38,552 nucleotides of DNA from Escherichia phage vB_EcoP_PHB20. Numbering within the stretch: position 1 is the first letter of the stretch; every line of letters begins with the position of its first letter. Positions 1 to 38,552 of the stretch are shown in pieces. The stretch lies in the sequence record MN481366.1; one strand, 5' to 3'. The translations under genes were made by a program, and so were the position numbers. A model generated the notes under the pieces. It saw only the letters and a program-made list of their open reading frames with translations, was not told where the DNA came from and did no database searches.

Positions 1-47
1 TGAAATTAGTGATACAGGTCTAAGTATCTGATTCTAGACCATTATTC

Positions 48-70
48 TAATTCGACTCACTATAGGGAGA
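48..70 (+). promoter_or_regulatory. T7 RNAP promoter, phiOR-like (right-end promoter upstream of gene 19.5)
   Basis: taattcgactcactatagggaga matches the 23-bp T7 consensus with one mismatch at -13; +1 G at 65. Confidence 0.75.
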
Positions 71-164
71 AGCCTACCTAAAGATAACTATAAGACTTAA
101 AGTGTCCTATAAGGTAGGTTGTTATTATGATTATTAATACAACCAACATAAAGGGAGGAGACTC

Positions 165-314
165 ATGTTCCGCTTATTGTTGAACCTACTGCGGCATAGA
201 GTCACATACCGCTTTCTTATGGTACTTTGTGCTGCCCTTGGTTATGCAGCTTTTAGTGGGGACCTCAGTTCGCTGGAGTCTACCGTTTGCTCTTTACTCA
301 CTTGTATTGATTAA
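165..314 (+). CDS. 19.5: gene 19.5 protein (49 aa, small hydrophobic right-end protein)
   Basis: ATG 165 preceded by aagggaggag; translation MFRLLLNLLRHRVTYRFLMVLCAALGYAAFSGDLSSLESTVCSLLTCID, near-identical to T7 gp19.5 as recalled; below the 60-aa track cutoff. Confidence 0.8.
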   Translation: MFRLLLNLLRHRVTYRFLMVLCAALGYAAFSGDLSSLESTVCSLLTCID

Positions 315-554
315 GGTCTTACTGACCGACTGATGGCTCACCGAGGGATTCAGCGGTATGATTGCATCACACCACTTCATCCCTATAGAGTCAAGTCCTA
401 AGGTATACCCATAAAGAGCCTCTAATGGTCTATCCGTAAGGTCTATACCTAAAGATAGGCCATCCTATCAGTGGAACCTAAAGAGGGTCCTAGAGAGGGC
501 CTGAGGAGTCCCTAGAGGGTCCTTTAAAATATACCATAAAAATCTGAGTGACTA

Positions 555-704
555 TCTCACAGTTTAAGAACCCAAAGTTCCCCCCATAGGGGTCCCTAAA
601 GCCCAGCCAATCACCTTGAGTCAACTTTCAGTTGACCTTGAGGGGTCCCTAAGGGTTGGGGTTGACCCTTTGGGTGTTACCTTGAGTGTCTCTTCTTGTC
701 CCCT
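555..704. repeat. Terminal repeat homolog (single copy in window; physical genome end / concatemer junction)
   Basis: tctcacag...gtgtctcttcttgtcccct aligns to the 160-bp T7 direct terminal repeat; right-end sequence lies upstream and left-end sequence downstream. Confidence 0.7.
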
Positions 705-711
705 ATCTGTT
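705..711 (+). promoter_or_regulatory. ATCTGTT element (T7 RNAP class II pause/termination signal, CJ-like) at the repeat boundary
   Basis: atctgtt directly after the terminal repeat, same relative position as the T7 concatemer-junction site. Confidence 0.5.
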
Positions 712-932
712 CACCCTCCTAAAGTCACCTCCTAAAGTCACCTCCTAAAGTCACCTCCTAAAGTCACCTCCTAAAGTCACCTCCTAAAGTCACCTCCTAA
801 AGTCACCTCCTAAAGTCACCTCCTAAAGTCACCTCCTAAAGTCACCTCCTAAAGTCACCTCCTAAAGTCACCTCCTAAAGTCACCTCCTAAAGTCACCTC
901 CTAAAGTCACCTCCTAAAGTCACCTCCTAAAG
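711..932. repeat. Tandem array of 13-bp unit TCACCTCCTAAAG (one 14-bp variant then 16 perfect copies)
   Basis: Perfect copies start at 725 and recur every 13 bp to 932; first unit tcaccctcctaaag at 711-724; no spacers. Confidence 0.95.
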
Positions 933-6447: not shown

Positions 6448-6455
6448 CGTCACAT

Positions 6456-6478
6456 TAATACGACTCACTATAGAGGGA
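6456..6478 (+). promoter_or_regulatory. T7 RNAP promoter phi1.1A, copy 1
   Basis: taatacgactcactatagaggga; +1 G at 6473. Confidence 0.85.
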
Positions 6479-6529
6479 CAAACTCAAGGTCACTTAATGA
6501 GTGGCCTTTATTATTGACCTTCTTCCGGT

Positions 6530-6552
6530 TAATACGACTCACTATAGAGGGA
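6530..6552 (+). promoter_or_regulatory. T7 RNAP promoter phi1.1A, copy 2 (duplicated)
   Basis: Identical 23-mer; +1 G at 6547. Confidence 0.85.
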
Positions 6553-6603
6553 CAAACTCAAGGTCACTTAATGAGTGGCCTTTATGATTGACCTTCTTCC
6601 GGT

Positions 6604-6626
6604 TAATACGACTCACTATAGGAGAA
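6604..6626 (+). promoter_or_regulatory. T7 RNAP promoter phi1.1B
   Basis: taatacgactcactataggagaa; +1 G at 6621. Confidence 0.85.
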
Positions 6627-8636: not shown

Positions 8637-9255
<619 letters not shown>

Positions 9256-9258
<3 letters not shown>

Positions 9259-9278
9259 TACGACTCACTATTAGGGAA
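9256..9278 (+). promoter_or_regulatory. T7 RNAP promoter phi2.5 (A-initiating)
   Basis: taatacgactcactattagggaaga; the T7 phi2.5 variant with +1 A. Confidence 0.8.
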
Positions 9279-9323
9279 GACTCCCTCTGAGAAACTAAAC
9301 GAAACCTAAAGGAGATTAACATT

Positions 9324-10022
9324 ATGGCTAAGAAGATTTTCACCTCTGCGCTGGGTATTGCTGAACCTTACGCTTACATCTCTAAGCCGGACTACGGCAA
9401 CGAAGAGCGTGGCTTTGGGAACCCTCGCGGTGTCTACAAAGTTGACCTGACTATTCCCAACAAAGACCCGCGCTGCCAGCGTATGGTCGATGAAATCGTG
9501 AAGTGTCACGAAGAGGCTTATGCTGCTGCCGTTGAGGAATACGAAGCGAATCCACCTGCGGTAGCTCGTGGTAAGAAACCACTGAAACCGTATGAAGGTG
9601 ACATGCCGTTCTTCGATAACGGTGACGGCACTACTACCTTTAAGTTCAAATGCTACGCGTCTTTCCAAGACAAGAAGACCAAAGAGACCAAGCACATCAA
9701 TCTGGTTGTGGTTGACTCCAAAGGTAAGAAGATTGAAGACGTTCCGATTATCGGTGGCGGCTCTAAGCTGAAAGTCAAATACTCTCTGGTTCCGTACAAG
9801 TGGAACACCGCTGTAGGTGCGAGCGTTAAGCTGCAACTGGAATCCGTAATGCTGGTCGAACTGGCTACCTTTGGTGGAGGTGAAGACGATTGGGCTGACG
9901 AAGTTGAAGAGAACGGCTATGTTGCCTCTGGTTCTGCCAAAGCGAGCAAACCACGCGACGAAGAAAGCTGGGACGAAGACGACGAAGAGTCCTACGAAGA
10001 AGACGAAGACGGAGACTTCTAA
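9324..10022 (+). CDS. 2.5: Single-stranded DNA-binding protein (gp2.5)
   Basis: 232 aa with acidic C-terminal tail DEESWDEDDEESYEEDEDGDF; near-identical to T7 gp2.5 as recalled. Confidence 0.95.
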   Translation: MAKKIFTSALGIAEPYAYISKPDYGNEERGFGNPRGVYKVDLTIPNKDPRCQRMVDEIVKCHEEAYAAAVEEYEANPPAVARGKKPLKPYEGDMPFFDNGDGTTTFKFKCYASFQDKKTKETKHINLVVVDSKGKKIEDVPIIGGGSKLKVKYSLVPYKWNTAVGASVKLQLESVMLVELATFGGGEDDWADEVEENGYVASGSAKASKPRDEESWDEDDEESYEEDEDGDF

Positions 10023-10478
10023 GTGGCTGGCGCATACGCTGCGCGTGGTATCCGAAAGGTCGGGACATTCCGTTCCGGCCTAGAAGATAAGGTCTCTAAG
10101 CAGCTAGAGGGTAAGGGCATTAAGTTCGACTATGAACTCTGGAAAATCCCTTACGTTGTCCCTGCGAGCAACCATGTGTATACTCCAGACTTCCTGCTGC
10201 CTAACGGAATCTTCATTGAAACCAAAGGTTTATGGGAGAGTGACGACCGAAAGAAACACTTATTGATTCGCGAACAGTTTCCCGAACTGGACATCCGTCT
10301 GGTGTTCTCAAGCTCGCGCACAAAGCTGTACAAAGGGTCTCCGACCAGTTACGGCGAGTGGTGTGAGAAGCACGGTATCCTGTTTGCTGACAAATTAATT
10401 CCTGTGGAATGGCTCAAAGAACCCAAAAAGGAGGTGCCATTTGACAAGCTGAAACAATCGAAGGGAGGTAAGAAATAA
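10023..10478 (+). CDS. 3: Endonuclease I, Holliday junction resolvase (gp3)
   Basis: 151 aa starting at GTG directly after the 2.5 stop; ...PASNHVYTPDFLLPNGIFIETKGLWESDDRKKHLLIREQ... matches T7 gp3. Confidence 0.9.
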   Translation: MAGAYAARGIRKVGTFRSGLEDKVSKQLEGKGIKFDYELWKIPYVVPASNHVYTPDFLLPNGIFIETKGLWESDDRKKHLLIREQFPELDIRLVFSSSRTKLYKGSPTSYGEWCEKHGILFADKLIPVEWLKEPKKEVPFDKLKQSKGGKK

Positions 10479-10933
10479 TGTCTCGTGTACAGTTCAAACA
10501 ACGTGAATCCACTGACGCAATCTTTGTCCACTGCTCGGCTACCAAGCCAAGTCAGAACGTGGGTGTCCGTGAGATTCGCCAGTGGCATAAAGAGCAAGGT
10601 TGGCTCGATGTTGGGTATCACTTTATCATCAAGCGTGATGGCACTGTAGAGGCGGGTCGAGACGAGATGGCTGTAGGTTCTCACGCTAAGGGCCACAACC
10701 ACAACTCTATTGGTGTCTGCCTTGTGGGTGGTATCGACGATAAAGGTAAGTTCGAAGCTAACTTTACGCCAGCCCAAATGCAATCCCTTCGCTCACTGCT
10801 TGTCACACTTCTTGCTAAGTACGAAGGTGCTGTTCTTCGCGCACATCACGATGTGGCACCAAAGGCTTGCCCATCGTTCGACCTTAAGCGTTGGTGGGAG
10901 AAGAACGAACTGGTCACTTCTGACCGTGGCTAA
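10478..10933 (+). CDS. 3.5: Lysozyme / N-acetylmuramoyl-L-alanine amidase, T7 RNAP inhibitor (gp3.5)
   Basis: 151 aa MSRVQFKQRESTDAIFVHCSATKPSQNVGVREIRQWHKEQGWLDVGYHFII...; near-identical to T7 lysozyme as recalled. Confidence 0.95.
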   Translation: MSRVQFKQRESTDAIFVHCSATKPSQNVGVREIRQWHKEQGWLDVGYHFIIKRDGTVEAGRDEMAVGSHAKGHNHNSIGVCLVGGIDDKGKFEANFTPAQMQSLRSLLVTLLAKYEGAVLRAHHDVAPKACPSFDLKRWWEKNELVTSDRG

Positions 10934-10953
10934 TTGAACTCACTAAAGGGAGA
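10931..10953 (+). promoter_or_regulatory. T7 RNAP promoter phi3.8
   Basis: taattgaactcactaaagggaga; +1 G at 10948; followed by hairpin gggagaccacaacggtttccc (R3.8-like). Confidence 0.75.
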
Positions 10954-10985
10954 CCACAACGGTTTCCCTTTGTTCGCATTGTTGA

Positions 10986-12735
<1,750 letters not shown>

Positions 12736-15865: not shown

Positions 15866-15884
15866 TTCTATAGGAGAAATTATT

Positions 15885-18879: not shown

Positions 18880-18893
18880 ACAGGAGGTGACAC

Positions 18894-20504
18894 ATGGCTG
18901 AGAAGCGTACAGGTCTAGCCGAGGAAGGTGCAAAGTCCGTTTATGACCGATTGAAGAACGACCGCGCTCCTTATGAGACTCGTGCTCAAAACTGCGCTCA
19001 GTACACCATTCCGTCCCTCTTCCCTAAGGAATCCGATAACTCATCCACAGACTACACGACTCCGTGGCAAGCTGTGGGTGCTCGCGGTCTCAATAACTTG
19101 GCCTCTAAGCTCATGTTGGCGCTCTTCCCGATGCAAACGTGGATGAAGCTGACCATCTCTGAGTATGAGGCAAAACAGTTACTGAATGACCCCGATGGAC
19201 TCGCTAAGGTTGATGAGGGTCTATCGATGGTAGAGCGTATCATCATGAACTACATTGAGTCTAACAGTTACCGAGTAACTCTCTTTGAGGCTCTCAAGCA
19301 GTTAGTCGTAGCTGGTAACGTTCTTCTGTATCTACCGGAACCAGAAGGGTCAAACTACAATCCCATGAAGCTGTACCGATTGTCTTCTTATGTGGTCCAA
19401 CGAGACGCATTCGGCAACGTTCTGCAAATGGTGACTCGTGACCAGATAGCTTTTGGTGCTCTCCCTGAGGACATCCGTAAGGCTGTAGAAGGTCAAGGTG
19501 GTGAGAAGAAACCTGATGAGACCATCGACGTGTACACTCACATCTATCTGGATGAGGACAAAGGTGAATACCTCCGGTACGAAGAGGTCGAGGGCATGGA
19601 GGTCCAAGGCTCAGATGGGTCTTACCCTAAAGAGGCTTGCCCATACATCCCGATTCGCATGGTTCGACTGGATGGTGAATCCTATGGTCGTTCGTACATT
19701 GAGGAATACTTAGGCGACTTACGGTCACTTGAGAATCTCCAAGAGGCTATCGTTAAGATGTCAATGATTAGCTCTAAGGTTATCGGCTTAGTGAATCCTG
19801 CTGGTATCACCCAGCCACGCCGACTGACCAAAGCCCAGACTGGTGACTTTGTTACTGGTCGCCCAGAAGACATCTCGTTCCTCCAACTGGAGAAGCAAGC
19901 AGACTTTACGGTAGCCAAGGCTGTCAGTGACGCTATTGAGGCTCGACTTTCGTTTGCCTTTATGTTGAACTCTGCGGTTCAGCGCACAGGTGAACGTGTG
20001 ACCGCCGAAGAGATTCGGTATGTAGCTTCTGAACTTGAAGATACTTTAGGTGGTGTCTACTCAATCCTTTCTCAAGAATTACAATTGCCTCTGGTGCGAG
20101 TGCTCTTGAAGCAACTGCAAGCCACGCAACAGATTCCTGAGTTACCTAAGGAAGCCGTAGAGCCAACCATTAGTACAGGTCTGGAAGCAATTGGTCGAGG
20201 GCAAGACCTTGATAAGCTGGAACGGTGTGTCACTGCGTGGGCTGCGCTGGCTCCCATGCGCGATGACCCTGACATCAACCTTGCAATTATTAAGTTGCGC
20301 ATTGCGAACGCTATCGGTATTGACACTTCTGGTATCCTTCTTACCGAAGAACAGAAGCAACAGAAGATGGCTCAACAGGCTATGCAAATGGGTATGGATA
20401 ACGGTGCTGCTGCGCTTGGTCAAGATATGGCTGCACAGGCTACAGCTTCTCCTGAGGCTATGGCTGCTGCCGCTGATTCCGTAGGTTTACAGACGGGCAT
20501 TTAA
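18894..20504 (+). CDS. 8: Portal / head-tail connector protein (gp8)
   Basis: 536 aa, same length as T7 gp8; aggaggtgacacATG SD. Confidence 0.98.
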   Translation: MAEKRTGLAEEGAKSVYDRLKNDRAPYETRAQNCAQYTIPSLFPKESDNSSTDYTTPWQAVGARGLNNLASKLMLALFPMQTWMKLTISEYEAKQLLNDPDGLAKVDEGLSMVERIIMNYIESNSYRVTLFEALKQLVVAGNVLLYLPEPEGSNYNPMKLYRLSSYVVQRDAFGNVLQMVTRDQIAFGALPEDIRKAVEGQGGEKKPDETIDVYTHIYLDEDKGEYLRYEEVEGMEVQGSDGSYPKEACPYIPIRMVRLDGESYGRSYIEEYLGDLRSLENLQEAIVKMSMISSKVIGLVNPAGITQPRRLTKAQTGDFVTGRPEDISFLQLEKQADFTVAKAVSDAIEARLSFAFMLNSAVQRTGERVTAEEIRYVASELEDTLGGVYSILSQELQLPLVRVLLKQLQATQQIPELPKEAVEPTISTGLEAIGRGQDLDKLERCVTAWAALAPMRDDPDINLAIIKLRIANAIGIDTSGILLTEEQKQQKMAQQAMQMGMDNGAAALGQDMAAQATASPEAMAAAADSVGLQTGI

Positions 20505-36306: not shown

Positions 36307-38067
36307 GTGTCTACTCAATCCAATCGTAATTTGCTCGTTGTGGCGCAACTAAAGGGCGACTTCGTGGCGTTCCTGTTCGTCTTATGGAAGGCGTTAAACC
36401 TTCCGGTGCCCACTAAGTGTCAGATTGACATGGCTAAGGTGCTGGAGAATGGAGACAACAAGAAGTTCATCCTACAGGCTTTCCGTGGTATCGGTAAGTC
36501 GTTCATCACATGTGCGTTCGTTGTGTGGTCCTTATGGAGAGACCCACAGTTGAAGATACTCATTGTATCAGCCTCTAAAGAACGTGCAGACGCTAACTCC
36601 ATCTTCATTAAGAACATCATTGACCTGCTCCCATTCCTTGCTGAGCTAAAGCCAAGACCCGGACAGCGCGACTCTGTAATCAGCTTTGATGTTGGTCCTG
36701 CCAGTCCTGACCACTCGCCTAGTGTGAAATCAGTAGGTATCACTGGTCAGTTAACTGGTAGTCGTGCTGATATTATCATTGCGGATGACGTTGAGATTCC
36801 GTCTAACAGTGCTACTATGGGTGCCCGTGAGAAGCTATGGACTCTGGTTCAGGAGTTCGCTGCGTTACTTAAGCCGCTGCCTACTTCTCGTGTTATCTAC
36901 CTTGGTACACCTCAAACTGAGATGACTCTCTATAAGGAACTGGAGGATAACCGTGGGTACACCACTATCATCTGGCCTGCTCTGTACCCAAGGACTCGTG
37001 AGGAGAATCTTTACTATGCCCAACGTCTTGCCCCAATGCTCCGTGCGGAGTACGAGGAGAATCCTGAGGCTCTGGCTGGTACTCCTACAGACCCTGTTCG
37101 ATTCGACAGAGATGACCTACGTGAGCGTGAGTTGGAATACGGTAAGGCTGGCTTTACGCTACAGTTTATGCTTAACCCGAACCTGAGTGATGCCGAGAAG
37201 TACCCTCTGAGGCTCCGTGACGCTATCGTAGCGGCCTTAGACTTAGAGAAGGCACCGATGCATTACCAGTGGCTTCCGAACCGTCAGAACATCATTGAGG
37301 ACCTTCCTAACGTGGGCCTTAAGGGTGATGACCTGCACACCTACCACGAGTGCTCGAATAACTCTGGTCAGTATCAACAGAAGATTCTGGTCATTGACCC
37401 TAGTGGTCGCGGTAAGGACGAAACAGGTTACGCGGTGCTGTACACCCTCAATGGTTACATCTACCTAATGGAAGCTGGAGGTTTCCGTGACGGTTACTCC
37501 GATAAGACCCTTGAGTTGCTCGCTAAGAAAGCTAAGCAATGGGGAGTCCAGACGGTCGTCTACGAGAGTAACTTCGGTGATGGTATGTTTGGTAAGGTAT
37601 TCAGTCCTATCCTTCTTAAACACCACAACTGTGCTATGGAAGAGATTCGTGCTCGTGGTATGAAGGAGATGCGTATTTGTGATACCCTTGAGCCAGTCAT
37701 GCAGACTCACCGCCTTGTCATTCGTGATGAGGTCATTAGGGCAGACTACCAGTCCGCTCGTGACGTAGACGGTAAGCATGACGTTAAGTATTCACTGTTC
37801 TACCAGATGACCCGCATCACTCGTGAGAAAGGTGCTCTGGCTCATGATGACCGCTTGGATGCTCTTGCGTTAGGCGTTGAGTATCTCCGTGAGTCCATGC
37901 AGTTGGATTCCGTTAAGGTCGAGGGTGAAGTGCTTGCTGACTTCCTTGAGGAGCACATGATGCGTCCTACGGTTGCCGCTACGCATATCATTGAGATGTC
38001 TGTAGGAGGAGTTGATGTGTACTCTGAGGACGATGAGGGTTACGGTACGTCTTTCATTGAGTGGTGA
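36307..38067 (+). CDS. 19: Terminase large subunit (gp19)
   Basis: 586 aa, GTG start after taaggaggtaat; Walker A-like AFRGIGKS; near-identical to T7 gp19 as recalled. Confidence 0.98.
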
Positions 38068-38104
38068 TTTATGAGGCCAAGGAAGGCCACTTTAAGGAGG
38101 TAAT

Positions 38105-38548
38105 ATGATAAACAAGAAGAAGTATGTTGTTGATAAGGAGACTGGTTGCTGGAACTTTAAGGGATGTAAGACGAAGACTGGTTATGGTCGTATCCGTGTG
38201 AATGGTGTCCATTGGATGGCCCACAGGTATTCCCTGAGTTGTCATCTAGGCAGACCGATAGCTGACGGAATGGTTGTGATGCACCTGTGTGATAACCCTT
38301 CGTGTGTTAACCCTGAGCACCTTAAGGAAGGGACCCAGAAGGAAAACATAGAGGACTGCATCTCAAAGGGTCGCGCAACTAAGGCCACAGGTAAACGTGA
38401 TGCGTCGAAGAGAGACCCTAGCGAGGAACGTAAGGCTATAGTGATTCGTAGATACCATAAAGGCTGGAACGCAACGTCCATAGCGAGATACCATAAGCTC
38501 TCTGTGGCGTGGGTCAAGAGGGTCATTGAGGAGTACCTAAGTGATTGA
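38105..38548 (+). CDS. HNH-family homing endonuclease-like protein (147 aa), not at this position in T7
   Basis: Motif ETGCWNFKG..GYGRIRVNGVHWMAHR...VVMHLCDNPSCVNPEHLKEGTQKEN typical of phage HNH endonucleases, plus C-terminal HTH-like AIVIRRYHKGWNATSIARYHKLSVAWVKRV; SD taaggaggtaatATG; rare AGA/AGG/ATA/CTA codons. Confidence 0.85.
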   Translation: MINKKKYVVDKETGCWNFKGCKTKTGYGRIRVNGVHWMAHRYSLSCHLGRPIADGMVVMHLCDNPSCVNPEHLKEGTQKENIEDCISKGRATKATGKRDASKRDPSEERKAIVIRRYHKGWNATSIARYHKLSVAWVKRVIEEYLSD

Positions 38549-38552
38549 TATT

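Follow-up and report, generated by a model that had tools for sequence, protein, structure and literature searches.

SegG and MobE of the T-even phages are free-standing nucleases associated with co-conversion of flanking markers (PMC10448857, PMC2790892), with MobE also known for trans-homing (PMC2790892). In the Autographiviridae, Hafnia phage Ca carries a 397-bp HNH cassette that is present or absent within one population (PMC8861465). The subject of the present analysis is a comparable site, the junction between gene 2.5 (single-stranded DNA-binding protein) and gene 3 (endonuclease I, a Holliday-junction resolvase) in the T7-group phage vB_EcoP_PHB20 of Escherichia (MN481366.1; the whole 38,552-nt stretch analysed is here termed the window). 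In T7 itself this junction holds gene 2.8 (NP_041971), which is treated in the literature as one of the HNH homing endonucleases of that phage. The window site and the T7 site are the same locus to the base, and the window displays the 2.8-minus state, as do 13a, phiA1122, CICC 80001 and at least 120 other records. Taken together, the sequence comparisons described below make it quite likely that the window junction is the unoccupied state of a putative homing site, held in T7 and a minority of Studiervirinae by a free-standing gene for an HNH homing endonuclease, either 2.8 or one of a related lineage, and that it represents a never-invaded or recombination-restored allele, and no deletion derivative of T7.

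Like the genes for SegG and MobE, 2.8 is an intergenic nuclease gene of sporadic occurrence between conserved essential genes, with adjacent markers probably co-inherited; unlike them, it has its start position, ribosome-binding site and stop codon in common with the gene next to it. The cassette of Hafnia phage Ca resembles 2.8 in its size of ~400 bp, its GTG start and a frame that overlaps the downstream gene, whereas it differs in lying between the lysis and terminase genes and in being a clean indel in a single phage stock. At the level of sequence, the region of the catalytic motif can additionally be aligned with the His-Me finger homing endonucleases I-HmuI and I-PpoI (PDB 1u3e, 1evw), a similarity that is marginal (E 0.03-0.06); these enzymes are intron-encoded, unlike the free-standing 2.8.

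In the window, the two flanking genes meet in the sequence ...GAC GGA GAC TTC TAA GTG GCT GGC GCA..., in which TTC occupies positions 10017-10019, the gene 2.5 stop TAA 10020-10022 and the gene 3 start GTG 10023-10025, with 0 nt separating stop and start. The claim of the initial annotation that gene 3 opens with GTG straight after the 2.5 stop is borne out by the match to the Phage_endo_I profile, which begins at the first codon and pairs protein residues 1-149 with profile positions 1-148 of 149, thereby placing the product in this family. The same GTG is annotated as the gene 3 start in the RefSeq record of Enterobacteria phage vB_EcoP_IME390 (genus Teseptimavirus), to which bases 9324-10933 of the window are 100% identical. 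Further, homologues with the N-terminus MAGAYAARG use an ATG at the same codon, either overlapping the 2.5 stop (TAATG) or abutting it (TAA ATG), and because of this correspondence GTG 10023 can be regarded as the true start of gene 3. It is scarcely credible that the arrangement is an artefact of annotation, with gene 3 starting elsewhere and a short unrecognised gene or signal lying at the junction: the one point in favour of this proposal is that GTG is a weaker start codon, and set against it are the zero bases between stop and GTG, the profile match from residue 1, the ATG of the homologues at the same codon and the lack of any alternative open reading frame of at least 25 aa, whether in frame with gene 3 or elsewhere on that strand. 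The GGAG in the last codons of gene 2.5 (Table 1) is probably the ribosome-binding site of gene 3, as judged from its position; in T7 the equivalent bases precede gene 2.8.

The T7 reference (NC_001604) has gene 2.5 at 9158-9856, gene 2.8 at 9857-10276 and gene 3 at 10257-10706. The description of T7 given in the initial annotation, namely that T7 has an HNH-like gene opening with GTG at this very point and gene 3 after it, proves to be correct on both counts. Gene 2.8 is 420 nt long and its GTG follows directly on the 2.5 TAA, at the base homologous to the gene 3 start of the window, and gene 3 of T7 has an ATG of its own, 400 nt past the 2.5 stop. T7 thus does have a gene between 2.5 and 3, and its gene 3 is not started at this GTG. 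The alignment of the window with T7 runs for ~1.3 kb and ends exactly at window 10026 / T7 9860, the last G of TAAGTGG (BLAST), and on account of this span the shared TAAGTGG reflects homology as opposed to a chance resemblance of a few bases. When the window junction was aligned with the T7 2.5-2.8-3 region by MAFFT, gene 3 was placed against 2.8, which made the result unusable; the comparisons given here are ungapped, by BLAST or by global alignment of single genes.

The 139-aa gp2.8 passes the Pfam HNH_3 threshold (26.1 bits against a cut-off of 24.8), and when it is aligned with 11 relatives occupying this junction or the adjacent site, each of the 12 proteins is recognised by HNH_3 (best E-value 3.6e-18). 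H45-R46, H59, C61, C66, N68, H71 and N80 are invariant across the 12 aligned proteins, a pattern that identifies them as HNH nuclease domains. In the occupied T7 site, gene 2.8 takes up the start position and the upstream GGAG that are used by gene 3 in the window, and its 3' end provides a strong ribosome-binding site, AAGGGAGG, together with an ATG for gene 3. The stop of 2.8 lies 20 nt inside gene 3, and its last six codons (HGRLRR) are gene 3 sequence read in another frame.

The gene-free state is common, already known and already annotated, T7 being the unusual one, and there is nothing new at the junction itself. A contiguous junction of the window type is present in at least 124 phage records, with hosts that include Escherichia, Yersinia, Salmonella, Klebsiella, Enterobacter, Citrobacter, Erwinia and Serratia. 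T7-type 2.8 DNA occurs in 130 records, of which ~113 are at least 95% identical, all of them T7 records among the matches listed. Natural carriers of 2.8 include AH67C600_Q5, KKE5P and SYGE1 (Teseptimavirus), FE44 and BP12A (Berlinvirus), Kp_Pokalde_002 (Przondovirus) and fPS-59 (Helsettvirus), and in every one of these a 420-nt gene lies between 2.5 and 3, its end extending 20 nt into gene 3. The gene is therefore sporadic, being found at the 2.5/3 junction in four genera and not in most of their relatives. Matches longer by 427 nt in phiA1122, Yanou and JacobBurckhardt were rejected as occupants of this junction: they represent the HNH gene 3.3 between 3 and 3.5, and the 2.5/3 junction of these phages is empty.

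A survey of the junction in 89 loci (80 IMG/VR loci found with a gp3 profile and nine GenBank loci) covers empty, occupied and scarred states. About 60 of the 89 are tight, with a gap of -1 to 13 nt; a gene of the 2.8 type is present in six distinct genomes, and six further loci (L032, L044, L047 and L075-77) carry, in the same position, HNH_3 genes ~40% identical to gp2.8. Another five have spacers of 19-76 nt which are remnants of nuclease genes. The scar in L053 joins the initial 27 nt of an L047-type gene to the 3' ribosome-binding-site region of that gene. The one in L056 comprises the first 54 nt of an L076-type gene, and the one in L055 a diverged 5' end of an L044-type gene, while in L050 (2.8-type gene) and L049 (L032-type gene) nothing but the final ~20 nt survives. 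These five scars establish that loss of the nuclease gene occurs at the 2.5/3 site and leaves traces. In the window, no gene and no remnant lie between 2.5 and 3, and none of the scars of L050, L053, L049, L056 and L055 is present; at 10020-10026, where the insertion would lie by homology with T7, one flank passes directly into the other, as in an empty allele. The reading of the junction as an empty site is in this respect upheld, the alignment with the T7 2.5-2.8-3 region and the survey of relatives being both consistent with it.

The two states differ, however, by more than the presence of a gene. With the 400 nt removed, the identity between T7 and the window is 96.6% in gene 2.5 (24 mismatches in 699 nt), 73% in gene 3 and 92% in gene 3.5, the trough coinciding with gene 3. 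The proportion of synonymous differences (pS) is 0.93 in gene 3, i.e., saturated, as against 0.12 in gene 2.5; values above 0.75 (up to 0.99) are the saturation expected of the Nei-Gojobori procedure where two-fold sites dominate, and carry no signal. Excision of 2.8 from T7 yields TAAGTGGCAGGTTACGGCGCTAAAGGA where the window has TAAGTGGCTGGCGCATACGCTGCGCGTGGT, and across the first 30 nt, or ten codons, of gene 3 the two are separated by a one-codon indel and about ten substitutions. In light of the diverged gene 3 and this indel, the window and T7 states are to be viewed as alleles of the whole 2.5-to-3.5 interval and not as a clean 400-bp indel. Thus, of the 'precise absence' originally proposed, the absence stands, there being no gene or remnant in the window junction, but the precision calls for this qualification. 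Existing annotations do not state that the 2.8-plus and 2.8-minus states differ also by the whole gene 3 allele. The allele of the window shares 94-99% nucleotide identity with ~20 nuclease-free Teseptimaviruses, and that of T7 is seen only alongside 2.8 (91.6% identical in AH67C600_Q5, and carried also by KKE5P and SYGE1).

This divergence bears directly on the possibility of secondary loss, under which the window would have arisen from a 2.8-bearing T7-like ancestor by a precise deletion between short TGG repeats (TAAGTGG...ACATGG). The 400-nt insert of T7 does have TGG at both ends, the clade-specific TAAGTGG is common to both states, and nuclease genes are known to have been lost at this site in other phages. 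However, such a history leaves unexplained both the 27% nucleotide divergence over all of gene 3, with its contrast in pS to gene 2.5, and the one-codon indel within the first 10 codons. Moreover, the observed losses leave their 19-76 nt scars and keep a gene 3 of the MAGYGAKGI type (L049, L055 and L056 not being beside the conserved 27-nt start considered below), whereas the allele of the window recurs at 94-99% identity in its ~20 nuclease-free relatives. Given the gene 3 divergence, excision of 2.8 at the TGG repeats was rejected as a simple explanation, and secondary loss as such is very improbable.

The history of the nuclease gene itself also departs from that of its surroundings. Between T7 and FE44, the synonymous divergence (dS) of 2.8 is 0.74, as compared with values at 2.0 or saturated for genes 2.5, 3 and 3.5; between FE44 and BP12A, both Berlinvirus, it is 0.81 for 2.8 and 0.19 for 2.5. 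On account of these values, the nuclease-gene tree disagrees with the flanks in both directions, an incongruence that points to horizontal spread of 2.8. The ratio of non-synonymous to synonymous divergence (dN/dS) of 2.8 is 0.08-0.38, which indicates that the protein is under purifying selection.

Comparison of pairs of phages with gene 2.5 at least 90% identical shows how tightly the state of the junction is linked to gene 3. In pairs with two empty junctions (n=211), the median identity of gene 3 is 96.1%, and values below 85% arise only in pairs with JacobBurckhardt, a phage in which gene 3 is flanked by a nuclease gene at its opposite end. By comparison, gene 3 is at most 82% identical in 79/79 pairs of an occupied and an empty junction, and likewise in all 16 pairs of a scarred and an empty one. 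Across the occupied or scarred loci with a close relative free of a homing-endonuclease gene, gene 3 identity spans 64.7-82% at the nucleotide level, with synonymous saturation measured for the window versus T7. A divergent tract anchored at the insertion is seen in 10/10 comparisons with such relatives (eight loci bearing a homing-endonuclease gene and two bearing a scar). The tract always starts at the 2.5 stop and is 180 to ~600 nt long, ending at ~180 nt in L056, at ~270 nt in L075 and L076, at the end of gene 3 in T7, AH67C600_Q5 and BP12A, and ~135 nt into gene 3.5 in FE44 and L032. A left boundary fixed at the insertion, combined with a variable right boundary, is of the kind that double-strand-break repair with co-conversion generates, as for SegG and MobE, and agrees with the general association of nuclease genes with exchange boundaries in phages (PMC10448857). 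The pattern of the tracts hence fits homing with co-conversion of the downstream flank, from donors that are unsampled, other causes being possible.

One such cause is passive mosaicism, in which 2.8 would no longer be, or would never have been, an active homing element, and ordinary homologous recombination at module boundaries (the conserved gene 2.5 tail and the gene 3.5 start) would shuffle the interval, the gene being kept where it is useful, e.g., against host defences. The sharp identity breaks at gene boundaries, the general tendency of nuclease genes to mark exchange boundaries in phages (PMC10448857) and the purifying selection on 2.8 are all compatible with this, as is the report that T7 deprived of 2.8, 3.8 and 7.7 remains viable but loses out to the wild type on hosts with the GAPS4 defence system (bioRxiv 10.1101/2025.09.07.674715). 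Nevertheless, the left boundary is base-precise in all pairs and the right one varies over 180-600 nt, which break repair predicts and generic recombination would not lead one to expect; further, at least two HNH groups have converged on one base-precise site, and their catalytic residues are invariant. Passive mosaicism appears quite unlikely on this balance.

Several observations nonetheless weigh against homing into a window-like target. The pairs compared are not phylogenetically independent, and are drawn from about three genomic backgrounds, with two or more HNH groups. The putative co-conversion donors are unsampled inasmuch as the nuclease-linked gene 3 alleles of one genus resemble those of another closely only over the first 27 nt. 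A search of the literature recovered no biochemical, cleavage or homing work on gp2.8, the functional data it did recover being confined to the T7 mutant mentioned above. Finally, among the surveyed loci and further carriers there is no tight nuclease-free junction with a 5' end of the MAGYGAKGI type (ATGGCAGGTTACGGCGCTAAAGG start), and the MAGYGAKGI-type allele, rather than that of the window, could be the true homing target.

This last point is best seen in relation to the start of gene 3, the first 27 nt of which are identical in T7, FE44, BP12A, L032 and L047, with the remainder of the gene ~70% identical. Within the surveyed Studiervirinae, this conserved start adjoins the majority of the nuclease genes and scars at the site, all 2.8-type genes among them, the exceptions being L049, L055, L056 and L075-77. 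Of its 27 nt, 20 are dual-coding, specifying also the last six codons and the stop of the 2.8-type and L047-type genes, and this dual coding for the nuclease C-terminus may be enough to explain the conservation. As separate observations on these alleles, the gene 3 of L053, with its L047-type scar at 1468-1500, is 98% identical to that of FE44, which has a 2.8-type gene (locus L006), i.e., one gene 3 allele occurs with different HNH lineages, and the alleles of BP12A (2.8 type; locus L007) and L032 (the 40% type) are 90.5% identical.

It could accordingly be proposed that homing in fact targets the 2.5 stop when it is followed by a gene 3 start of the ATGGCAGGTTACGGCGCTAAAGGAATC type, a combination that would be nearly always occupied or scarred, and that window-type junctions are immune variants never exposed to invasion. 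The persistence of an identical 27-nt end on otherwise divergent genes, the exchange of HNH lineages on one gene 3 allele (the type-2 scar of L053 versus the 2.8 of FE44) and the failure to find a tight empty junction of the ATGGCAGGTTACGGCGCTAAAGGAATC-type allele in the loci surveyed would all follow from such a scenario. However, the dual coding of the first 20 nt of the segment can by itself account for their conservation, the variable-length tracts anchored at the insertion resemble co-conversion into formerly window-like genomes, and the nuclease genes of L075-77 adjoin quite different gene 3 starts. That the window allele was never a target is therefore unlikely, if less so than passive mosaicism.

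The reading we prefer, then, is that of homing with co-conversion, in which the window most likely keeps the native, never-invaded junction of its clade, given that the divergent tract fits homing and co-conversion and that scars occur elsewhere and none is present in the window. In the empty state, gene 3 would be translated from the GTG abutting the 2.5 stop by way of the GGAG in the last 2.5 codons. In the occupied state, ~400 nt are inserted right after TAA(G)TGG, such that the nuclease gene assumes the start position and ribosome-binding site of gene 3, with the insert supplying in return the new strong site AAGGGAGG and an ATG for gene 3 and ending on a stop 20 nt inside it. The history that would account for this begins with a T7 clade whose native state was a tight junction and a MAGAYAARG-type gene 3. 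Break-induced gene conversion (homing) would then have brought 2.8 from a divergent phage into an ancestor of T7, and would also have overwritten the downstream flank, in T7 all of gene 3. A more far-reaching reading, in which the window-type junction is an escape allele and not a naive target, and HNH traffic at the 2.5/3 and 3.3 sites drives turnover of resolvase alleles across the subfamily, is unlikely; if true, IME390/13a-type phages would be immune to conversion by T7.

The junction itself is of little weight, as it is the ordinary arrangement of most T7 relatives and confirms 2.8 to be an optional insert. What is added here is that occupancy of the 2.5/3 site is never a clean indel in the survey: part or all of an essential resolvase gene is replaced from the insertion point onward. 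This leads to the prediction that enzymes of the gp2.8 family cut downstream of the insertion and co-convert gene 3. Such co-conversion would also offer an explanation for the gene 3 of T7 being an outlier within its own genus. IME390/13a-type phages, paired with T7, would provide ready natural substrates for homing in the T7 system.

Table 1. Positions in the window of the features at and around the 2.5/3 junction and of the terminal HNH gene.
Feature	Position	Strand	Remarks
Gene 2.5, single-stranded DNA-binding protein	9324..10022	+	Ends ...DEDGDF-TAA; Pfam SBB_T7 299 bits; left flank of the site
GGAG, Shine-Dalgarno-like	10011..10014	+	Embedded in the end of gene 2.5, 8 nt before the GTG; read from the sequence
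TAAGTGG, 2.5 stop and gene 3 start	10020..10026	+	Last stretch common with T7; left boundary of the insertion polymorphism
Gene 3, endonuclease I, Holliday-junction resolvase	10023..10478	+	GTG start, 151 aa; Pfam Phage_endo_I (PF05367) 272.9 bits
Allele-specific gene 3 5' end, GCTGGCGCATACGCTGCGCGTGGTATC	10026..10052	+	Encodes AGAYAARGI; from the junction table; unlike (ATG)GCAGGTTACGGCGCTAAAGGAATC beside every 2.8-type gene
TAATG, gene 3 stop overlapping gene 3.5 start	10476..10480	+	Right end of the T7-divergent tract; empty second HNH site
Gene 3.5, lysozyme/amidase	10478..10933	+	Right flank; identity with T7 back to 92%
HNH_3 and helix-turn-helix gene, 147 aa	38105-38548	+	Just after the large terminase gene; not in T7

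Beyond the 2.5/3 junction, the window has further sites at which relatives carry nuclease genes. The second empty HNH site at its 10476-10480 is occupied in phiA1122, Yanou, JacobBurckhardt and the IMG/VR locus L036 by the 426-nt HNH_3 gene 3.3, and in three of these carriers (phiA1122, Yanou and L036) the first ~135 nt of gene 3.5 form a divergent tract, the same downstream signature as at the 2.5/3 site. Additionally, the T7 genes 3.8 (HNH_3), 5.3 (PD-(D/E)XK) and 7.7 (HNH_3) are not in the window, their sites being at 10934-11000, ~15866-15884 and ~18881-18894. The 3.8 site retains a phi3.8-like promoter, and ~180 nt at the start of gene 4 cannot be aligned with T7; the 5.3 and 7.7 sites are clean indels relative to T7. 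Not all four small nuclease genes of T7 are of the HNH type, as 5.3 is assigned to PD-(D/E)XK by Pfam. The description 'endonuclease-free' holds for the 2.5/3 junction but cannot be extended to the genome, since the window has an HNH_3 gene of its own near its right end (Table 1).

As a whole, the window is a circular permutation of the IME390 record, window 868-38552 corresponding to IME390 13-37698 and window 1-698 to IME390 37699-38396. The intervening segment, window 699-867, has no counterpart in the megablast alignment with IME390 and may be the terminal-repeat region. The permutation cut of the window falls 4 nt past the stop of the HNH gene (window ends 1-867 and 38549-38552). Finally, offset self-matches in the BLAST comparison of the window with IME390 reveal a tandem duplication of ~93 nt at window 6455-6621, downstream of the RNA polymerase gene.

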